A stretch of 64,000 nucleotides of DNA from Candidatus Latescibacterota bacterium (GTDB lineage Bacteria > Latescibacterota > UBA2968 > GCA-2709665), in contig OZ252100.1 in the NCBI GenBank assembly GCA_965248435.1, positions 192,001 through 256,000 of the forward strand, given 5' to 3'. Positions 5,152 to 13,485 of this stretch are shown here, one piece after another (within the stretch, counting starts at the first letter, position 1; each line of letters opens with the position of its first letter). Made by a program: the position numbers and the translations under genes. The notes below the pieces were generated by a model. The model saw only the letters and a program-made list of their open reading frames with translations, ran no database searches and had not been told where the DNA came from.

Positions 5152-6072
5152 GTGTCTGAGCTACCCCTTCTGCTCGTCCTCGCTGGACCGACAGCGACCG
5201 GCAAGACCAGAACCGGTATCGGCCTCGCCGAAGCATTGGATGGGGAGATCATCTCGGCGGATGCCCGGCAGATCTATCGCCACATGGATATCGGCACTGC
5301 CAAGCCGAATAAGGAGGAACGGGCGGACGCGTCTCACCATGTTATCGACGTGGCGAACCCGGATGAGACCTATAGCGCTGGACGCTACGCGAGAGAGGCT
5401 GCGGCCGCGATCGACGATGTGATCAAAAGGGGGCGATCTCCGATCGTAGTGGGGGGGTCGGGGTTTTATCTGGAAGCGCTGCTCAAAGGGTTCTCGCCGA
5501 TCCCCGAGGTTCCACCAGATATGAGGGCCGCCCTGCAGGAGCAGGCGAGGGCTGATCTGGAGGGTCTGTATCGTCGACTGATGGGGGTGGATCCCGAAAC
5601 GGCATCGCGCCTGAATGCGAACGATGCGCAGAGGATCGTGAGGGGGCTGGAAGTGTATGAAGCGACCGGCGAGAAGCTGTCGGACCTTCAAGCCCTTCCT
5701 CGAGCGCAATACGGATCCTGGAACGTCAAATCGTTCGGCCTGACGATGGATCGGGAAGCGCTCTATCGCAGGATCGAGGACCGAGTGGGGAGAATGATCG
5801 AAGCGGGGCTGATCGAAGAAGTGAAGGGCCTCCGAGAGATGGGATATGGTCCGGAACTGAACGCGCTGAATACGTTCGGTTACCGGGAGACGTTTTCTTA
5901 CCTGGATGGGCGGATGAGATTGGATGATGCGGTGGAGGAGATGAAGATGGAGACGCGGCGCTACGCCAAACGCCAGATGACCTGGTTCAGGCGGGATCGC
6001 GAGATCGCCTGGATTGATCCCACCACGCAGGACGCCCCTTCTGAGATCCTTCGCGTGCTGGAAAGGGGTTGA
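5152..6072 (+). CDS. miaA: tRNA dimethylallyltransferase
   Basis: GPTATGKT P-loop, IISADARQIYRHMDIGTAKP, VGGSGFY, TRRYAKRQMTWF; follows mutL. Confidence 0.97.
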   Translation: MSELPLLLVLAGPTATGKTRTGIGLAEALDGEIISADARQIYRHMDIGTAKPNKEERADASHHVIDVANPDETYSAGRYAREAAAAIDDVIKRGRSPIVVGGSGFYLEALLKGFSPIPEVPPDMRAALQEQARADLEGLYRRLMGVDPETASRLNANDAQRIVRGLEVYEATGEKLSDLQALPRAQYGSWNVKSFGLTMDREALYRRIEDRVGRMIEAGLIEEVKGLREMGYGPELNALNTFGYRETFSYLDGRMRLDDAVEEMKMETRRYAKRQMTWFRRDREIAWIDPTTQDAPSEILRVLERG

Positions 6073-6097
6073 CAGACCTGTAGGGACTGGCTAGATT
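6069..6097 (+). promoter_or_regulatory. Sigma-70-type promoter for tRNA-Gly
   Basis: TTGACA (6069-6074), 17-nt spacer, TAGATT (6092-6097), 13 nt upstream of the tRNA. Confidence 0.75.
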
Positions 6098-6110
6098 CGG
6101 GAATACCGGG

Positions 6111-6185
6111 GCGGGAGTAGTTCAGCGGTAGAACGCAAGCTTCCCAAGCTTGATGTCGCGGGTTCGATCCCCGTCTCCCGCTCCA
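6111..6185 (+). tRNA. tRNA-Gly (anticodon CCC)
   Basis: Cloverleaf: GCGGGAG/CTCCCGC acceptor stem, GTTC/GAAC D arm, CAAGC-TTCCCAA-GCTTG anticodon arm, GGTTCGATCC T arm, encoded CCA. Confidence 0.97.
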
Positions 6186-6253
6186 AATAATCTATTGAAC
6201 AACAATAACTTACGGGCAGCTGGCCAGTCAGCCAACTGCCCATTCTTCTGTCC

Positions 6254-6272
6254 TGCTAACAGCGTGCTAACA
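6254..6272 (+). repeat. Putative integrase arm-type direct repeats (left end)
   Basis: TGCTAACA-GCG-TGCTAACA, 11-bp period; matches 9241-9259 at 16/19 nt. Confidence 0.65.
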
Positions 6273-6416
6273 AAAGACTGATTTCTGCCGCTTTGTCAGT
6301 GGACAGGTCATTTCCAAAAGGCACTATCGGTAACAAATTGCGTGGAACGGGATTTGGTTATACCTTGCATGGTCGTCCGCGTAGTCTCCACTAATGTCCA
6401 ACAGCATCGAGGCGCT

Positions 6417-9119
6417 ATGACAACCGAACACGCCTGGACCCACCGTGGTTTCGAATCCTTTTCTGAAGGCCGCTTTGAAGATGGTGGCACCAACCTCTAC
6501 GTCAACGCTAAGGGCATCATTGAGACCATCCATCGCACGGACGTCGACAACGACGGCTATGTCGACATCGTCTTGCCGAACGCACAGGGCTACAACGAAC
6601 GCGGACCGACCTGGATCTACAAGCCCGGTCCCGGCGACGGTGCGACGTGGGAACGGCGTGAGTTGCCGACCGACAGCGGCGACTCGTGCCGCATCGTGGA
6701 CCTGGACGGCGACGGGCATCAGGATCTGATCATCATTAATTCGTCGAACGGCGTGTCGTGCGAATTGCTCTGCCACATCTACTGGGGCGGGCCGAACGGG
6801 CTGACCGGTGAGAGGACCGATCTGCGGACGGTCGGGGCCTACGACGTTGCCGTCTTCGACGTAAACGGGGACGGGCGTCTGGACCTGGTTTTTCCGTCGG
6901 CGTGGGTCGATCATCACAACCCGGGGAGACCCCTTCCGCTGCACGTTTACCTGCAGGGAGACGACCGACAGTTCAAAGACCGGGGCGAGGAGTACGGTCT
7001 CACCGGGATCGGCGCCCGGTCTGTGGCGGTGGCGGACCTGAACGGGGACGGTCATCTCGACCTGGTGGTGGCCAACTACCGCCACGAGTTCGAATACAAA
7101 ATCGATTCTTACATCTACTGGGGCACGAAGGACGGTTTCGACACGACGCCCCAGGGTCTTCCGACGGACACGGCGACCAAGGTGTTCCTCGCCGATTTCA
7201 ACGGGAACGGCCGGCCTGATATCATGTTCTGCGGCAACAACAAGGTCCAAGTCTACTGGAACGACGAGGGTCGCTTCAGTCCCGACAATGGTCTGGTCGT
7301 CGAGACGGAGGGGCTTCAAGGCGAATTTCACTTCGGCAAACTCTACGCTACGGCGGCCGACGTGGACGGCGACGGGCGGGACGAGCTGCTGGTCGCGACA
7401 CAGCGCGGGGTGGAGATCCGGTCCGCCGACGATCTGACCGAGGTGAAGCAGTTCCTGCCGCTGACATATGCCTACTGCGTCCACACCGCAGACCTGGACG
7501 GCGACGGACGTCCGGAGCTGATCGTCAGCAAGTATCAAGAGACGGAGACCTTCAACACGCAATCGGCGATCTACTGGAATGGTCCGGATGGATATTCGAC
7601 CGAACGCTGCGCCCGCGTGCCGACGATGGGGGCCGAGGGGGTGACCGCGGGCGACCTCGACGGCGACGGCAAGCCGGTTGTGGTCTTCTGCAATACCATG
7701 ACCGGACACGCCAAGACCAGCCCGACGCTGCCCTCCTACATCTACTTCGGAGGGCCTGAGGCGGACTACGGCGTGCACCGCCGCCAGGAATTGCCGGTGG
7801 GCGGCGAATGTTCTGAATGCGCGGTCACCGATCTGGACCTCGACGGGTGGAACGATCTCGTGTTCGGCAATATGGAAGGCCTGCGCATCTTTCAGGGAGG
7901 TCCCGACGGCTTCCATCCGGACCGTTATGAGGATCTGCCCTGTTTCATGCCGGGCGTGCAGGTGGCGGACTTCAACAGAGACGGGTATCTGGACATCTTG
8001 GCGCTCAGTCACACCTACAACGACAAGCCGGAGACGTTCGCGAATTCCTCGCGCATTTTCTGGGGCTCCGCCGAGGGATTCAGTCCCGATCGCTTCGACA
8101 TCTTTCCGACATTCACCGGCTCCCACGCCCATCTGGCCGACTTTACTCGAAACGGAACCCTGGATGTGCTGGTTGGGGACAAGCGCGGTTACATCCTGAT
8201 CTATCTGGGTGGCCCGGGGGGGTATTCCCTCGACCGCACGCAGCGCATCCCGATGTACAAGGACTGGCTCGGCAACGTCAACACGGCCGCCGACCTGAAC
8301 GGCAACGGTTGGCTTGACCTGGTGGTTTCCAGCGCCGGCCACTACCTCCGCAGGCCGGATACGCTGACGATCTTCTATGGCGGCCCGGACGGCTACAGCT
8401 GGGACAACACGCAGCACTATGAGGGCGGCTTCTCGCCTGGACAGATGACCGTCGCGGACCTGAACAACAACGGCCTGCTGGACCTGATCGTGCCGGCGTA
8501 CTCGACCGAACTGACGCGGGTCGTGCCGGTGCAGATCTTCTGGAACCAGGGGGACCGCTTCGACCTGGAACACCCGCTCGTGCTGCACGCGGATGCCGGC
8601 TTCGAGGCGCTCCCGATCGATCTCAACCGAAACGGCTACATCGACCTGTTCCTTGCGTGCCATCGCAACGACGTCGGCCACGTTGTGGACTCCCATATCT
8701 TCTGGAACGGCCCGGAAGGAATATCGAACGACCGCACGACGCCGCTGCCCGGCATGGGGCCTCACAGGCTGAATGCCCGCATGCCCGGGAACGCCTACAC
8801 GCGAGAGCCGATCGAACGCTACACCTCGCCGGCACACGAGACGGGTGATCGTCGGCCGTGCCGGATCAGCTGGGAGGCCGAGGTACCCGAGACGACGACT
8901 TTGCAGTTCGAGTTGCGCTGTGCGGAGAACGAAACGGCGCTGGAGCAGATGCCGTGGATGGGACCGGAAGGGGGGGGGTCGATGTTCGAGAATACGGGGG
9001 TGTCGATTCCGGAGCTGTGGCCGTCGACCCGCTTTGTGCAGTATCGCGCGACATTCACATCGCTATACGGCTGCCGTTCGCCACGGCTGCGCCAGGTCCG
9101 TATCGATTTCCGAAGCTGA
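6417..9119 (+). CDS. Large FG-GAP/VCBS repeat (beta-propeller) protein
   Basis: More than a dozen DxNxDGxxDL Ca-binding repeats with IYWG/IFWG spacers; start moved to ATG 6417 after a GAGG RBS. Confidence 0.88.
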   Translation: MTTEHAWTHRGFESFSEGRFEDGGTNLYVNAKGIIETIHRTDVDNDGYVDIVLPNAQGYNERGPTWIYKPGPGDGATWERRELPTDSGDSCRIVDLDGDGHQDLIIINSSNGVSCELLCHIYWGGPNGLTGERTDLRTVGAYDVAVFDVNGDGRLDLVFPSAWVDHHNPGRPLPLHVYLQGDDRQFKDRGEEYGLTGIGARSVAVADLNGDGHLDLVVANYRHEFEYKIDSYIYWGTKDGFDTTPQGLPTDTATKVFLADFNGNGRPDIMFCGNNKVQVYWNDEGRFSPDNGLVVETEGLQGEFHFGKLYATAADVDGDGRDELLVATQRGVEIRSADDLTEVKQFLPLTYAYCVHTADLDGDGRPELIVSKYQETETFNTQSAIYWNGPDGYSTERCARVPTMGAEGVTAGDLDGDGKPVVVFCNTMTGHAKTSPTLPSYIYFGGPEADYGVHRRQELPVGGECSECAVTDLDLDGWNDLVFGNMEGLRIFQGGPDGFHPDRYEDLPCFMPGVQVADFNRDGYLDILALSHTYNDKPETFANSSRIFWGSAEGFSPDRFDIFPTFTGSHAHLADFTRNGTLDVLVGDKRGYILIYLGGPGGYSLDRTQRIPMYKDWLGNVNTAADLNGNGWLDLVVSSAGHYLRRPDTLTIFYGGPDGYSWDNTQHYEGGFSPGQMTVADLNNNGLLDLIVPAYSTELTRVVPVQIFWNQGDRFDLEHPLVLHADAGFEALPIDLNRNGYIDLFLACHRNDVGHVVDSHIFWNGPEGISNDRTTPLPGMGPHRLNARMPGNAYTREPIERYTSPAHETGDRRPCRISWEAEVPETTTLQFELRCAENETALEQMPWMGPEGGGSMFENTGVSIPELWPSTRFVQYRATFTSLYGCRSPRLRQVRIDFRS

Positions 9120-9240
9120 AGACGAGAGGACCCTGCCAAGCTACCGGATCGAGGCTTGGAAGGGACCTGCCGATGAGAAAGATCTGGTTTGTGAAGTAAC
9201 GCAGAGATCGCCGTGACAGGTAATGATGTGCCACTATTCG

Positions 9241-9292
9241 TACTAACAGCCTGCTAACCGGACCGACCGAAACGGGCCGAAACAGCCGAGAT
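9241..9292 (+). repeat. Putative arm-type repeats plus CCGAAAC direct repeats (right end)
   Basis: TACTAACA-GCC-TGCTAACC (9241-9259); CCGAAAC at 9267 and 9277; CCGAGAT at 9286. Confidence 0.6.
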
Positions 9293-9304
9293 GCCAAATA
9301 ATGA

Positions 9305-9352
9305 CTTCCCAAGCTTGATGTCGCGGGTTCGATAAGCCCCGTCTTCGCTCCA
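9305..9352 (+). repeat. att-type duplication of the tRNA-Gly 3' half
   Basis: CTTCCCAAGCTTGATGTCGCGGGTTCGAT (29 nt) identical to 6140-6168, then an imperfect copy of the tRNA 3' end. Confidence 0.9.
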
Positions 9353-9525
9353 GAATCTCCTCTTGAATATCTTTGGAGGATCGCTTTTTGCGATCCTCCG
9401 TTTTTGTAGATGCCACGGATGCACAAAGAAAGGGCCCCGTTCGCGAACTGCGAGCGGGGCCTTCTCAGTCTAGCGCTTCCCTCAATACGGATGATTTTAG
9501 ATGTTTGGTTCCTCAAGAAACCTGT

Positions 9526-10455
9526 TCAACGGGCTACGAAGTTGATCTGTCCAGGTTGAAAGGTCAGCTCGGAAAATAGCGGCCCTGGCTTAGTCCCAGG
9601 CGGGGGCTGCACCGGCTGGAAAGAAACAATCGTCAGAGCGTGCAGCTCGATAGAAAATCTCCTTGTTTGTCCTCTGTCCAGGAGATGAAATGCGATCTGA
9701 CCCCGCAGCGGGACACCCATGCTGGCCTTCTTCACCAGGTCAGAAACGGCCGCTGTACCATCTTTGTCCGAGTTTAGACTCAATTGAACCGGTGAGATCT
9801 GGAGCCGACCCCCTTCGTTCCGACAGGTCACCGGGCTGGCGGCGTGGACTTGCACGTTCCCGGGCAGGCCGATGCTGTTTTCCATGATGAAATATGCCTC
9901 TTTAGCCAGAATATTTGGATCTATGCGCGGAGCAGATCCCCCACCTGAGCCTGACTTGAGGGGGATGGTGCTGGGGATGATCTGGACCGACATCGTGGCA
10001 AAAGAGCTGCTCTCGGGGTTTAACGTGGGGAAGGTAACCTGCGAGATGGCATAGTTGCTGTAGTTTTGGCGGCCCACTTCGCGCCCGGTCTTATCAAAAG
10101 TTTGGACTTCGACAGGCCTCGTACTGGGGGCTCCTCTTATCGCATCAAGAATCCAACTGGATAATGCTGGAGGCATCGATTGCGGATGAAAGCTGAAATC
10201 GATCGGCCCTCCCTGTGTTTTTCCTGTGGTGGTGACCTGGTATCTATCTCCCCCGGTGGTGCTGGTTGCCATCTGCGTGACCGGGTCAGCCACATTGAAA
10301 TGGATTACGTTTACAAGACCGCCCCCGATCAACACTGCTACTCTATGCGCTTGGGCCATGTCTGTTTTCACATCTGCAGCCTTGGCTGGTAGAGAAACAA
10401 TGAGTAAGAGCAGAACTACATGGGTTAGGACCCAAGGTAATTTATGGGCTCGCAC
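9526..10455 (-). CDS. Secreted protein with two tandem T4 gp19/Afp-tube-like domains
   Basis: GTG at 10455 with an AAGGGAGGT RBS; signal peptide MRAHKLPWVLTHVVLLLLIVSLPAKA; segment SSWILDAIRG..RPVEVQTFDKTGREVGRQNYSNYAISQVTFPTLNPESSSFATMSVQI resembles gp19-type tubes. Confidence 0.6.
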   Translation of the reverse strand: MRAHKLPWVLTHVVLLLLIVSLPAKAADVKTDMAQAHRVAVLIGGGLVNVIHFNVADPVTQMATSTTGGDRYQVTTTGKTQGGPIDFSFHPQSMPPALSSWILDAIRGAPSTRPVEVQTFDKTGREVGRQNYSNYAISQVTFPTLNPESSSFATMSVQIIPSTIPLKSGSGGGSAPRIDPNILAKEAYFIMENSIGLPGNVQVHAASPVTCRNEGGRLQISPVQLSLNSDKDGTAAVSDLVKKASMGVPLRGQIAFHLLDRGQTRRFSIELHALTIVSFQPVQPPPGTKPGPLFSELTFQPGQINFVAR

Positions 10456-10747
10456 GGCTTGTACCTCCCTTTCTAAAGGTTTCCTGCGGACTGGTGAGCG
10501 GATACAATGGACAATATAAGCACTTGGAAGAGAAAAACTCGTGACAATGGTCACCAAGATAGGGCGCAGTAATTGGTTCAACAATGAGAAAATGATTCTA
10601 CGACCCCTATGGGACCAAACATGATGTCGCGTTGGACATCGGGAGGTTTCTCGCTGAATTGCCTTGACCCCCAAACCCTTTTCGTTTATCTTCAGTATTA
10701 AGTAATTCCGTAGAATTTCCCCACACCGCATTGTGTGACAACCAGAT

Positions 10748-12169
10748 ATGAGCGATCCAATTCCCGTCGAAGGTCGCCCCATGGTGACCGAGCTGCAGAT
10801 CGGCGTCGAGGTCACAGGGGTGATTCCGCGCGGCCTCGGGGAAGAGGCTGGAATTCTCCCGGGGGATGTAATCGAGCGGATAAACGGGGAAGCGGTCCGG
10901 GATCCGATCGATTACCGGTTCCACATCGGCGAGGACCTGGTCGAACTGGAGGTTCTACGCGGGGAGGAGAGGGTTGTCTTCGACATCGAAAAGGATCCGG
11001 ATGATGATCTCGGACTGGAACTCGAAGACCTTTCGATCCTCAAGTGCAACAACAAATGTGTCTTCTGTTTTCTGCATCAAATGCCGAAGGGGATGCGCAA
11101 GACCCTCTACTATCAGGACGATGATTACCGCCTTTCTTTTGCACACGGGGCCTATGTAACGCTCACGAACCTTTCGGAAGCCGATTTTCAGAGGATCGTG
11201 GATCAGCGGTTGAGCCCTGTCTACATCTCCGTTCACGCGACCGATCCGAAATTGAGGGGAAGCCTTTTGGGGCGCGAAAAGGCGGTCGACGTGGACGTGA
11301 TGGAAAGGATTCGCTTCCTGAGCGAAAACGGGATCGAGATGCACACGCAGGTCGTCCTCTGCCCCGGACTGAACGATGACCTCCATCTGAAACGAACCGT
11401 CTTCGACCTCGCAGCCTGTTATCCAGACGTGGCGTCCCTTGGTATCGTCCCTCTGGGGTTGACGCGATTCCGAAAGAACCTTCCAGAACTCGATCCAGTC
11501 ACCCCCGAAATTGCAGATAGGACGATCGAGCAGGTAACGCCGTGGCAGTCCAGTTTGAAGAAGAAGCTCGGGCACAATTTCGTCTACCTCGGGGACGAAT
11601 TCTACCTGCAGGCCGACCGAGACATTCCGTCCGCATCCGCCTATGATGGATTTCCACTCCTGGAGAATGGGGTGGGGATGGTGCGCCGGTTCTGTGACGC
11701 CTTTGAAAGCGGAGTTGACCGCCTTCGGAGCGTCCCCGAGCCGCGACGCATCCTGCTGGTGACGAGCCGGCTTGGCGAAAGATTCGTGCGGGGGATGGTA
11801 GATCGTCTGAACGGTCTGGGATGCCTAGAGGTCGAACTCGTGGAGGTCCGGAATCGATTCTTCGGGGATGGGATCACGGTCACCGGTCTGCTGACCGGGG
11901 CGGACATGCTGGATGCGTTGAAAAGCGAATGGAAATCGCCCCAGGTTGTGGTCCTTCCTCCCAATTGCGTCAGCCACGCCGGGCTGTTTCTGGATGATCT
12001 CACACCGTCGGATCTTGCCGATGCCCTCGGGGCGGAGGTCGTGGTTGGGAGCTACGACCTCGTGCAGACGATAGAGCGGATTACCAGCGGCCGGAAAATG
12101 GAGAAGGGTGTCGGTGGTGACCCGCCGTGGGCGCATCCTTACATCTCTTCGCGCCAGATGGCATCCTGA
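10748..12169 (+). CDS. PDZ + radical SAM Fe-S oxidoreductase (DUF512 family)
   Basis: N-terminal PDZ (AGILPGDVIERING), CNNKCVFCF CxxxCxxC motif, YYQDDDYRLSF, YDGFPLLENGVG, FFGDGITVTGLLTG; upstream of der. Confidence 0.92.
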   Translation: MSDPIPVEGRPMVTELQIGVEVTGVIPRGLGEEAGILPGDVIERINGEAVRDPIDYRFHIGEDLVELEVLRGEERVVFDIEKDPDDDLGLELEDLSILKCNNKCVFCFLHQMPKGMRKTLYYQDDDYRLSFAHGAYVTLTNLSEADFQRIVDQRLSPVYISVHATDPKLRGSLLGREKAVDVDVMERIRFLSENGIEMHTQVVLCPGLNDDLHLKRTVFDLAACYPDVASLGIVPLGLTRFRKNLPELDPVTPEIADRTIEQVTPWQSSLKKKLGHNFVYLGDEFYLQADRDIPSASAYDGFPLLENGVGMVRRFCDAFESGVDRLRSVPEPRRILLVTSRLGERFVRGMVDRLNGLGCLEVELVEVRNRFFGDGITVTGLLTGADMLDALKSEWKSPQVVVLPPNCVSHAGLFLDDLTPSDLADALGAEVVVGSYDLVQTIERITSGRKMEKGVGGDPPWAHPYISSRQMAS

Positions 12170-13485
12170 TGGGCCAGAGACTACCAGTCGTCGCCATCGT
12201 CGGGCGCCCAAACGTCGGAAAGTCCACATTGTTCAACCGGTTTCTGGGTAAACGTCGGGCCGTCGTGGACGATCTGCCCGGGGTGACACGAGACCGGAAT
12301 TATGCAGAAGTCGCCTGGAACCGTCGCGTGTTCACATTAGTCGATACAGGCGGCTACGTGCCTCGTTCGGATGAACAGATCCTTGAGTCGATCGCCAGCC
12401 AGATCGAGAGGGCGATGGGCGAGGCGGACCTGATCCTGATGGTGGGGGACGCGAAGACAGGCCCGACCGATTACGATGATGAGATGGCACGCCTTGTTCG
12501 TGCTTGCGGAAAGCCCTATCTCCTGGTTGTGAACAAGGTCGATTCCGAATGGGACGAGCCTGAGGCGACGCGCTTTTACAGCCTGGGGTTGGGAGAACCG
12601 ACTCCAGTTTCGGCACTGGGCGGACGTCTCGTTGGGGACCTGATGGATCTGGCGATCGACCAGCTTCCACCAGGAGAGGAAGAGGAGGAGAAGAAGCTCT
12701 GTCCTAAGATCGCGATTGTCGGCCGGCCAAATGTGGGAAAATCAACCTTTGCGAATAAGCTCATCGGAGAGGACCGCGTCGTGGTCAGCCCGATCCCCGG
12801 AACGACTCGGGATTCGATCGACCTTCCGATGCGGCGGAACGGAAGAGACTATCTGCTGATCGATACGGCTGGACTCCGTCGCCGCACGCGGATTCGGGAG
12901 CAGGTGGAGTACTACAGTGCCTTGCGAACCGCTGAAAGCCTGGAGCGAAGCGATGTCGTGACCGTCCTGGTGGATGCCGTTGAGGGGTGTACGACTCAGG
13001 ACATGAAGATCCTGAATCAGGCCGTGGATCTTGGAAAAGGGGCGGTCCTGGTCGTGAACAAGTGGGACCTCGTGGAAAAAGACCACAATACCTCTGCGGA
13101 GTACACCCGTGAGGTACAGAAACGGTTTCCCTCGCTGCGGGCATATCCGATCCTGTTCACCTCCGCCCTCACCGGACAGCGAACCTGGCGGGCCATCGAC
13201 TTCGCCCTCGCTGTCTACGACCGCCGCGCTTCAAGAATCCCGACATCTGAGATCAACCGGTTCCTGGTAGAGCTTAATGCGGTGTCCCCCCCGCCCTCAA
13301 AAGGGCGGCGCCTGAGCCGAATGGTCTATGCCGTGCAGCCTCGAACCGAGCCGCCGACGATCGTGTTTTTCACTTCGAGACCCGACGACGTACCTGAGCA
13401 CTACCGGCGATTTCTTGAGCGGAAGCTGAGAGAACGGTTCGACTTTCTGGGCACGCCGGTTCGCGTCGCGTTCAGAAAAAAGTAA
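12169..13485 (+). CDS. der: Ribosome biogenesis GTPase Der (EngA)
   Basis: Two GRPNVGKST P-loops, PGVTRD/PGTTRD, DTGG/DTAG, NKVD/NKWD, C-terminal KH-like domain. Confidence 0.97.
   Translation: MGQRLPVVAIVGRPNVGKSTLFNRFLGKRRAVVDDLPGVTRDRNYAEVAWNRRVFTLVDTGGYVPRSDEQILESIASQIERAMGEADLILMVGDAKTGPTDYDDEMARLVRACGKPYLLVVNKVDSEWDEPEATRFYSLGLGEPTPVSALGGRLVGDLMDLAIDQLPPGEEEEEKKLCPKIAIVGRPNVGKSTFANKLIGEDRVVVSPIPGTTRDSIDLPMRRNGRDYLLIDTAGLRRRTRIREQVEYYSALRTAESLERSDVVTVLVDAVEGCTTQDMKILNQAVDLGKGAVLVVNKWDLVEKDHNTSAEYTREVQKRFPSLRAYPILFTSALTGQRTWRAIDFALAVYDRRASRIPTSEINRFLVELNAVSPPPSKGRRLSRMVYAVQPRTEPPTIVFFTSRPDDVPEHYRRFLERKLRERFDFLGTPVRVAFRKK

Follow-up and report, generated by a model that had tools for sequence, protein, structure and literature searches.

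A tandem tail-tube protein with a predicted signal peptide, inserted at a tRNA-Gly gene of a Latescibacterota bacterium

Introduction

Tail-tube proteins, Hcp and the tube proteins of extracellular contractile injection systems (eCIS) are textbook building blocks of the cytoplasm, which leave the cell only within a particle or a needle; the tube proteins of phages and of contractile injection systems (CIS) assemble in the cytoplasm and carry no signal peptide. A gene of Candidatus Latescibacterota bacterium raises the question of whether such a building block can also be sent out of the cytoplasm on its own. The gene lies on the minus strand, at 9526..10455 of a 64,000-nucleotide stretch of DNA (contig OZ252100.1, positions 192,001 to 256,000; the whole stretch is called the window here, and coordinates refer to it unless another locus is named). 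It was first described, in a sequence-only reading, as coding for an apparently exported protein with two tube-like domains, here called P0001. Is P0001 built from tube domains, does it begin with an export signal, where did its gene come from and what could the protein do? The answer that we favour, giving its parts taken jointly about an even chance, is that P0001 is an exported two-domain tube protein descended from the tandem tube of an eCIS, that it was acquired at a tRNA-Gly gene, and that it forms rings in the cell envelope without contraction.

Results

Two related tube domains in one chain

The coding sequence is an intact open reading frame (ORF) of 309 codons and a stop, with a full-length paralog, P0004, that is 44% identical and is encoded at another place in the same genome. 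The mature part comprises an N-terminal tube domain (residues ~36–165; 9961..10350, minus strand, as for all P0001 features given below), a GSGGGS linker (residues 169–174; 9934..9951), where a GSG motif is kept in the family consensus, and a C-terminal tube domain (residues 177–309; 9529..9927). The sequence-only reading had seen two related halves joined by this linker, and hhalign bears this out by aligning residues 36–168 with residues 178–309 at 79% probability (E-value of 1.6e-5 over 69 columns).

On its own, P0001 matches the Pfam family Phage_T4_gp19 (PF06841) over residues 67–159 with an E-value of 0.019 and 15.2 bits, below the cut-off of 28.2, and single-sequence searches of NCBIfam, PHROGs and PDB sequences give no match. 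A pattern search of genome contigs with P0001 returned 78 matches with no relative among them, and a word-indexed protein search, which scores only the 8000 candidates that share most words, found P0001 itself and nothing else or, with alignments A1 and A5, also P0015 or P0018. A scan of 1.84 billion cluster representatives yielded 19 proteins with E-values of 0.001 or less, two of which (P0001 itself and P0005) reach 1e-10 or less. Once the tandem-tube family is represented by alignment A1, which holds 20 sequences, the gp19/Afp1-type pattern that had been read from the letters of P0001 emerges at the level of the family: PF06841 is matched by 16 of the 20 members at E-values of 0.1 or less (best, 1.8e-14), Pfam TssD is matched weakly by three, and the A1 profile finds solved eCIS tubes with E-values of 1.7e-12 (8bl4_v), 2.4e-7 (9qgl_1A), 3e-6 (Pvc1, 6j0b_a) and 6.3e-6 (Afp1, 6rao_A). 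These profile matches to eCIS tube structures span the N-terminal half only.

The AlphaFold2 model of P0001, computed with A1, has a predicted local distance difference test (pLDDT) score of 81.1 and a predicted template modelling score of 0.76; it is weak at residues 1–5, 20–35, 61–68 and 70–78, the last two stretches falling below a pLDDT of 50. Results of a Foldseek search of the PDB place tandem-domain tubes of siphophages at the top (8xan_A with an E-value of 9.7e-7, then 8ed0_A of P74-26 and T5 chains, the tandem-domain matches ranging from 9.7e-7 to 6e-4), followed by single-domain Pvc, Afp, AlgoCIS, T4 and Hcp chains, with eight matches at 0.001 or less. In a VIA-align fold comparison against 48,161 chains, residues 34–309 superpose on 8ed0_A (Z-score of 15.1, r.m.s.d. 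value of 3.9 Å over 242 residues), 8xan_B (Z-score of 15.1, r.m.s.d. value of 4.5 Å over 243 residues), 5ngj_A, which is pb6 of T5 (Z-score of 13.1 over 217 residues), and 7qg9_I (Z-score of 13.0 over 230 residues). Taken singly, the C-terminal domain (residues 177–309) aligns with CIS, T4 and Pvc tubes at Z-scores of 10.9–11.6, and the N-terminal domain (residues 37–165) aligns best with Hcp5 (7yw0_A, Z-score of 9.1), its Z-scores to Hcp5, a monocin tube and a gene transfer agent tube lying between 7.7 and 9.1. A viral structure library gives the same fold picture.

The structure search that had been proposed as a check on the tube fold thus ends in tube-fold matches with both Foldseek and VIA-align. 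In the predicted model, the tube-protein fold, a beta-sandwich with a flanking helix, is confirmed in both domains, and their mutual arrangement is that of tandem tube proteins and compatible with a ring. A trimer prediction from three copies of residues 36–309 with A1 scored 0.00 against a mark of 0.42; its controls were not run, and it speaks neither for nor against a ring.

Start site and predicted signal peptide

The ribosome-binding site AGGGAGG (10464..10470) stands 8 nt ahead of the GTG start at 10455, and the first 26 residues (VRAHKLPWVLTHVVLLLLIVSLPAKA; 10378..10455) comprise a basic start, a hydrophobic core with a mean Kyte–Doolittle hydropathy of 3.03 in a 12-residue window, and A-K-A at positions −3 to −1 of the predicted cleavage site. 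The n-, h- and c-regions of a Sec signal can be read directly from the sequence, and the N-terminus contains no lipobox cysteine. The strong ribosome-binding site, the GTG start and the signal peptide ending in A-K-A were thus correctly described at the outset.

Translation might in principle begin instead at an internal MAQAHRV (Met33), which would leave no signal peptide. However, P0004 is alignable with P0001 over its entire length (BLASTP E-value of 3e-61), starts with ATG behind its own AAGGAGG at the position that matches the P0001 start, and has no methionine at the position of Met33; in addition, a GCAGGAAACC motif is common to both genes upstream of their ribosome-binding sites (window 10471–10500; L009 10770–10800). 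A start at Met33 is therefore unlikely, in favour of the upstream start chosen in the sequence-only reading. The motif may be a common regulatory element of the two paralogs.

Among 31 aligned codons of the signal region, P0001 and P0004 have 10 identical, nine that differ synonymously and 12 that differ non-synonymously, most of the latter exchanging one hydrophobic residue for another. The signal peptide is identical to that of P0004 at 15 of 24 residues, compared with 113 of 265 in the core; the corresponding values for signal peptide and mature part are 13 of 25 against 75 of 243 for P0029, and 14 of 25 against 53 of 178 for P0014. Across these clade comparisons of aligned sequences, the signal peptide is more conserved than the mature part, and each of the five clade members whose N-terminus is complete (P0001, P0004, P0005, P0029 and P0014) carries a similar one. 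From these features we infer that P0001 is a Sec-type exported protein.

Beyond the other end of the gene, 65 nt past the stop, lies a G+C-rich hairpin followed by CTTTCTTTGT (9423..9461, minus strand). It was picked from sequence and fold, is not among the results of the terminator scan, and is tentatively proposed as a terminator.

Acquisition at tRNA-Gly

The gene sits beside a tRNA integration site, as the sequence-only reading had stated. The 3′ part of a tRNA-Gly(CCC) gene (6111..6185, plus strand), the integration target, is repeated exactly over 29 nt, 6140–6168 recurring at 9305–9333 as the first portion of a direct repeat (9305..9352, plus strand) that diverges thereafter. A degenerate third copy (10615..10631, plus strand; 15 of 17 positions) is found ~25 nt before homology to the same-genus genome G001 resumes. 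With two mismatches or fewer allowed, the repeat 17-mer occurs three times in the window, against 0.03 times expected by chance. The distance between the miaA–tRNA-Gly and DUF512–der blocks is 208 bp in G001 and 246 bp in another relative, G002, but 4.46 kb here, which defines an insertion (about 6193..10655) that contains an FG-GAP gene, the tRNA fragment and the tandem-tube gene. The positions of the repeats give a layout of tRNA, FG-GAP gene, repeat, tandem-tube gene, worn repeat and DUF512. The three copies bracketing two cassettes look like two successive, now decayed integrations; neither integrase nor phage genes are found in the 4.46-kb insertion. A tmRNA-like 3′ end suspected at 9320–9352 proved to be the tRNA-Gly fragment, Rfam reporting only tRNA-Gly in 5500–11500 and nothing at E-values of 1 or less in 8900–10900.

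The FG-GAP/VCBS-like repeat gene (6342–9119, 925 amino acids) is flanked by tRNA-Gly and the first copy of the repeat. G001 has versions of it that are 78–79% identical at two other places, which indicates that the FG-GAP gene also moves. The tube gene has no copy in G001 and was not found in 40 relatives or in 167 other genomes of the phylum (E-value of 1e-5 or less). The claim that it sits in AT-richer DNA holds, although the difference is modest: the gene has a G+C content of 54.4%, against 56.6% for the genome, and a G+C content at third codon positions (GC3) of 58.4%, compared with 68–80% in neighbouring genes; the P0004 gene has a GC3 of 55%. As judged from these sequence comparisons, the P0001 gene is horizontally acquired, in a small cassette at tRNA-Gly.

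Genomic surroundings and the paralog locus

The genes of the region run, in order, mutL, miaA, tRNA-Gly, the FG-GAP repeat protein, the P0001 gene, a DUF512 radical-SAM protein, der, nusA and infB. Tail genes are missing from this neighbourhood, and none lies within 10 kb of either the P0001 or the P0004 copy. The absence of sheath, baseplate and spike genes nearby, already remarked in the sequence-only reading, extends to the genome (5.67 Mb in two contigs, 97.5% complete), where nothing scores above the cut-off for Phage_sheath_1 (PF04984), GPW_gp25 (PF04965), Phage_GPD/VgrG (PF05954) or VipB/TssC (PF05943), and PF06841 finds the target gene only. A Phage_sheath_1 match in a 423-residue ORF at G000:C1:4656840 has 19.6 bits against a cut-off of 31.4 and was not taken as a sheath. 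The search with PF14065 (Pvc16_N), whose control gave no match, was uninformative and stands outside this statement of absence. Eight Omp85 matches above the cut-off show an outer membrane and thus a diderm cell, in which a Sec substrate would reach the periplasm first. PADLOC gives no match for P0001, P0003, P0004 or P0023.

The P0004 gene (G000:C1:5164818-5165726), around which there are no tail genes, directly follows that of P0003 (L009 8856–10394; G000:C1:5162855-5164393), a 512-residue protein that combines helical repeats and a Pro/Gln-rich spacer (~200 residues) with a signal peptide of its own and, at the C-terminus, a tandem tube module, which the A1 profile matches with an E-value of 1e-43 and Pfam gp19 with 8.8e-4. 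In the tree described below, P0003 stands apart from P0004 and is grouped with eCIS-embedded tubes (support 100/98). The neighbours at this locus are TPR, PhyH, exported cupin, DUF1016–SNase and LRR proteins, an integrase and an IS91 transposase. The DUF1016-N/SNase fusion (L009 12614–13630), two genes downstream of P0004, matches the PADLOC candidate PDC-S02. The integrase and transposase, 4–6 kb beyond it, mark the paralog region as an accessory island.

Relatives in Myxococcota and recurrent export signals

Look-alike clusters in the ESM Atlas (323–330 residues, score of 0.90) come from Bacillota and Myxococcota and are labelled 'phage tail protein / gp19', so public annotation treats proteins of this kind as nothing more than phage tail proteins. 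'Phage tail protein' is also the label of the P0008/P0023 cluster in a Polyangiales metagenome-assembled genome, which served as the search centre. An A1 search of 401 Myxococcota genomes gave matches with E-values of 1e-8 or less in 136, mostly single tube domains of 150 residues, and full-length tandem matches at 27 places in 12 genomes. The description of P0001 as an orphan therefore stands as regards tail neighbours, of which there are none, but not as regards relatives, which include P0004, P0003, the 19 database proteins and these 27 places.

The 27 tandem ORFs were fetched with their flanks and classed by N-terminus and neighbours, the latter by phmmer with sheath, Pvc16 and 150-residue tube queries over all ORFs; a Pfam scan of neighbours covered 55 of 74 greedily chosen ORFs, from six of seven loci, leaving out the 12 ORFs of L052 and seven short or low-GC3 ORFs. 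Nine ORFs without a signal lie inside eCIS loci (L049, L051, L052, L053, L058, L069 and L071), in the gene order Pvc16_N, a 403-residue sheath, one or two tandem tubes, a 595-residue sheath and a 150-residue gp19 tube. They are matched by the A1 profile with E-values of 1e-60 to 1e-85 and are the nearest signal-less relatives; being genuine eCIS tube genes, they lend substance to the term 'domesticated' that had been applied to P0001. Thirteen further ORFs, one at each of 13 loci (L054–L057, L059–L064, L067, L068 and L070), have neither a signal nor a sheath within ~7 kb. The remaining five, one each at L018, L050, L065, L066 and L072, bear a signal and have no sheath nearby, their neighbours being an IS200 transposase, YceG, response regulators, MoxR–DUF58–transglutaminase, an RND pump and CotH. 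The survey of homologs for signal peptides and genomic isolation, suggested at the outset, thus finds all five signal-bearing Myxococcota members away from sheath genes.

A maximum-likelihood tree was computed from 45 rows and 284 columns, from which the signal region had been cut out; P0001 and P0004 entered as ORFs and P0008 as L018, and the fragments P0006 and P0014 were dropped. The label 'signal' changes seven times on this tree, at least four of these changes being forced by supported branches, and exported forms are interspersed with eCIS tubes. A single origin of the label is found in 0 of 200 bootstrap trees, and one clade of signal-bearing rows is rejected by the approximately unbiased (AU) test (p value of 5.9e-5), for which the group was defined from N-termini and which was run after a quick tree had been viewed. 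P0001 first groups with P0004 and P0005 (98/92); P0009 and P0018, whose contigs measure ~1.9 kb and whose N-termini may be cut, join next (100/99), and the group stands on a long stem. As far as the sequences tell, the tandem-tube family has seen at least four gains or losses of export signals, and the association of these signals with loss of the eCIS context is a repeated one. Since such signals turn up several times in a family that also includes genuine eCIS tubes, the change of compartment looks recurrent and not accidental.

Several members deserve mention in their own right. In some eCIS, the main tube gene is a tandem gp19 fusion of ~305–320 residues, often two in a row, as at L049 (G563:C281:29000-46000; 5297–12606); the predicted fusions imply a contractile system with tube rings built from trimers. 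At L069 (~7083–8013, minus strand; G413:C19), an eCIS tandem tube is split into two overlapping frames that cover profile positions 29–235 and 220–312, either by a frameshift or by a sequencing error. A relative at L072 (6552–8048; G438:C110) has a twin-arginine-like leader (..TRRHLLYGAAAASAGGLLLPRPARA..), which suggests export of the folded protein by the twin-arginine translocation (Tat) pathway in one lineage. Myxococcota with a tandem-tube eCIS have, in addition, one to three extra tandem tube genes that lack a signal and lie at a distance from sheath genes (the 13 loci above); their products might act as alternative subunits of the tube or carry cargo.

Discussion

A putatively exported tube and what it may form

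The results suggest that a component of tubes has taken on a new role outside the cytoplasm: the tail-tube fold appears to have moved to the exported proteome, its origin being clear and its exported state predicted from the sequence. In the course of events that we favour, the ancestor of P0001 would have been the tandem-fused inner tube of an eCIS lineage, which gained a signal peptide and lost its link to sheath, baseplate and spike; the gene entered this genome horizontally, in the small tRNA-Gly cassette. The protein would be exported by Sec into the periplasm of a diderm cell, where the mature protein would fold and its chains would join into trimeric rings of pseudo-six-fold symmetry, possibly into short stacks. 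Such rings might have a structural or binding role, within the envelope or beyond it, with no contractile drive. The ring and its role are put forward by analogy, the idea of a ring coming from fold likeness to trimeric tandem tubes only.

Several observations weigh against this reading. The single-sequence score of P0001 remains under the Phage_T4_gp19 cut-off (15.2 against 28.2 bits), and export is called from sequence features and their conservation. The stem branch of the clade is long, at 1.9 changes per column, so the properties of P0001 may differ from those of eCIS tubes. Residues ~56–84, which include the two stretches with a pLDDT below 50 (61–68 and 70–78), are poorly modelled, and this is presumably where the hairpin that contacts the next ring would be expected; in addition, the clade lacks an insert of ~10–20 residues that many relatives have in the C-terminal domain. 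Together, these two features make stacking into a long tube doubtful. Tube polymerization normally needs an initiator or a tape measure, neither of which is encoded near the P0001 gene, and no conserved partner gene was found.

Other explanations

The same protein could serve as a decoy or immunity ring in the envelope, an exported tube mimic that binds or caps parts of an incoming phage tail, tailocin, eCIS or type VI secretion system (T6SS) in the periplasm and thereby blocks injection, which would amount to superinfection exclusion on a mobile cassette. A mobile, tRNA-linked setting would suit such a function, as would the absence of the gene from the 40 relatives and 167 other genomes of the phylum, export signals if they are counted as repeatedly gained in the family, and the location of the paralog in an accessory region that also contains an integrase, an IS91 transposase and the PDC-S02-matching DUF1016–SNase protein. 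However, the tube proteins themselves have no PADLOC match, the cassette carries no phage genes or integrase, binding to foreign tails is conjecture and no such mechanism turned up in the literature search listings; we regard a decoy as unlikely. An Hcp-like ring that carries or chaperones cargo in its lumen, or a matrix or surface block tethered by partners such as P0003, is in our estimate likewise improbable. Both domains of P0001 are Hcp-like in fold (Z-scores of 8–9), Hcp rings, which form without a sheath, bind cargo in their lumen, and two exported tandem-tube lineages adjoin in P0003 and P0004, the former with its signal peptide, helical repeats and 200-residue Pro/Gln-rich spacer. Yet the copy in the window stands alone, with its own ribosome-binding site and possible terminator, and no conserved cargo gene lies beside any of the five exported Myxococcota members.

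Two further explanations were considered. The gene could be an inert remnant of a decayed mobile element, either unexpressed or translated from Met33 into a signal-less, functionless product, and the cassette does lack an integrase, has a degenerate right-hand repeat and contains a gene with a GC3 below that of its neighbours. This is very improbable given that the 309-codon frame is intact behind a strong ribosome-binding site, that the 44%-identical paralog shares both ends and the signal peptide without a frameshift, and that Met33 is not conserved in P0004. Alternatively, P0001 could be the tube of an unrecognized tail-like particle (a tailocin, a gene transfer agent or a non-contractile tail) with its remaining genes in other parts of the genome, in keeping with its best full-length fold matches, which are siphophage tail tubes. 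To this we attach hardly any credence: a Sec signal is at odds with assembly in the cytoplasm, neither copy has tail genes within 10 kb, the sequence kinship is with eCIS tubes and not with siphophage tubes, and no sheath, spike or gp25 gene was found in the genome.

Returning to the exported two-domain ring of eCIS descent, a broader generalization can be formulated, namely that CIS tube proteins acquired Sec or Tat signals on several independent occasions and so became self-assembling, sheath-less rings or tubes of the envelope or the extracellular space, serving as conduit, cargo ring or decoy. They would make up a new class of exported nanostructure of phage origin, with P0001 as an example from a genome devoid of injection systems. 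We consider this extension doubtful and offer it as a conjecture. What is at stake can nevertheless be stated. That a clade keeps an export signal in genomes which lack sheath and baseplate implies a second role of the tube fold, in the cell envelope. Should the exported proteins assemble into rings or tubes by themselves, they would represent a new envelope structure, a simple secretable self-assembling scaffold and a test case for the domestication of phage parts; if the rings block incoming tails, they would represent a new principle of defence. The tandem-fusion tubes of eCIS also bear on how six-fold tubes are built from trimers in contractile systems.

Comparison with known systems

Among the papers listed by full-text literature searches, none deals with tube-fold proteins that are exported or with tandem tubes of eCIS. 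Excerpts of one article name a gp19-domain protein in a secretome and make no claim of a signal peptide (PMC12019908), and the terms 'signal peptide', 'tandem' and 'Myxococc' do not occur in excerpts of another (PMC8213781).

With Hcp (TssD), the domains of P0001 have the basic fold in common (Z-scores of 8–9). However, Hcp is a single-domain, signal-less protein that leaves the cell via the T6SS, whereas the genome that encodes P0001 has no VipB/TssC or Phage_GPD/VgrG match. The tandem tubes of siphophages, namely pb6 of T5, the tail tube protein of P74-26 and the major tail protein of SH-Ab15497, have two domains arranged as in the P0001 model (Z-scores of 13–15 over 217–243 residues), and tandem tube proteins of the T5 pb6 and P74-26 type reportedly form trimeric rings with pseudo-six-fold symmetry. 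They are virion parts made in the cytoplasm and belong to a phage tail gene context with tape measure, terminator and distal tail genes, whereas the neighbours of P0001 and P0004 are non-tail genes. Since their identity to P0001 is 9–12% and there is no match at the level of sequence, the siphophage fusions and that of P0001 are probably independent.

The inner tubes of eCIS (Afp1, Pvc1 and the tube of Streptomyces CIS; Phage_T4_gp19) have a tube domain homologous to those of P0001. They are signal-less proteins of ~150 residues with one domain, encoded beside sheath and baseplate genes and assembled in the cytoplasm, whereas P0001 has two domains and a signal peptide, in a genome where no such genes were found. 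The tandem eCIS tubes of Myxococcota, at ~300–320 residues, belong to the same family as P0001 and have the same two-domain layout; they are signal-less and are encoded between Pvc16_N and sheath genes, whereas P0001 belongs to a separate, long-branched clade of that family.

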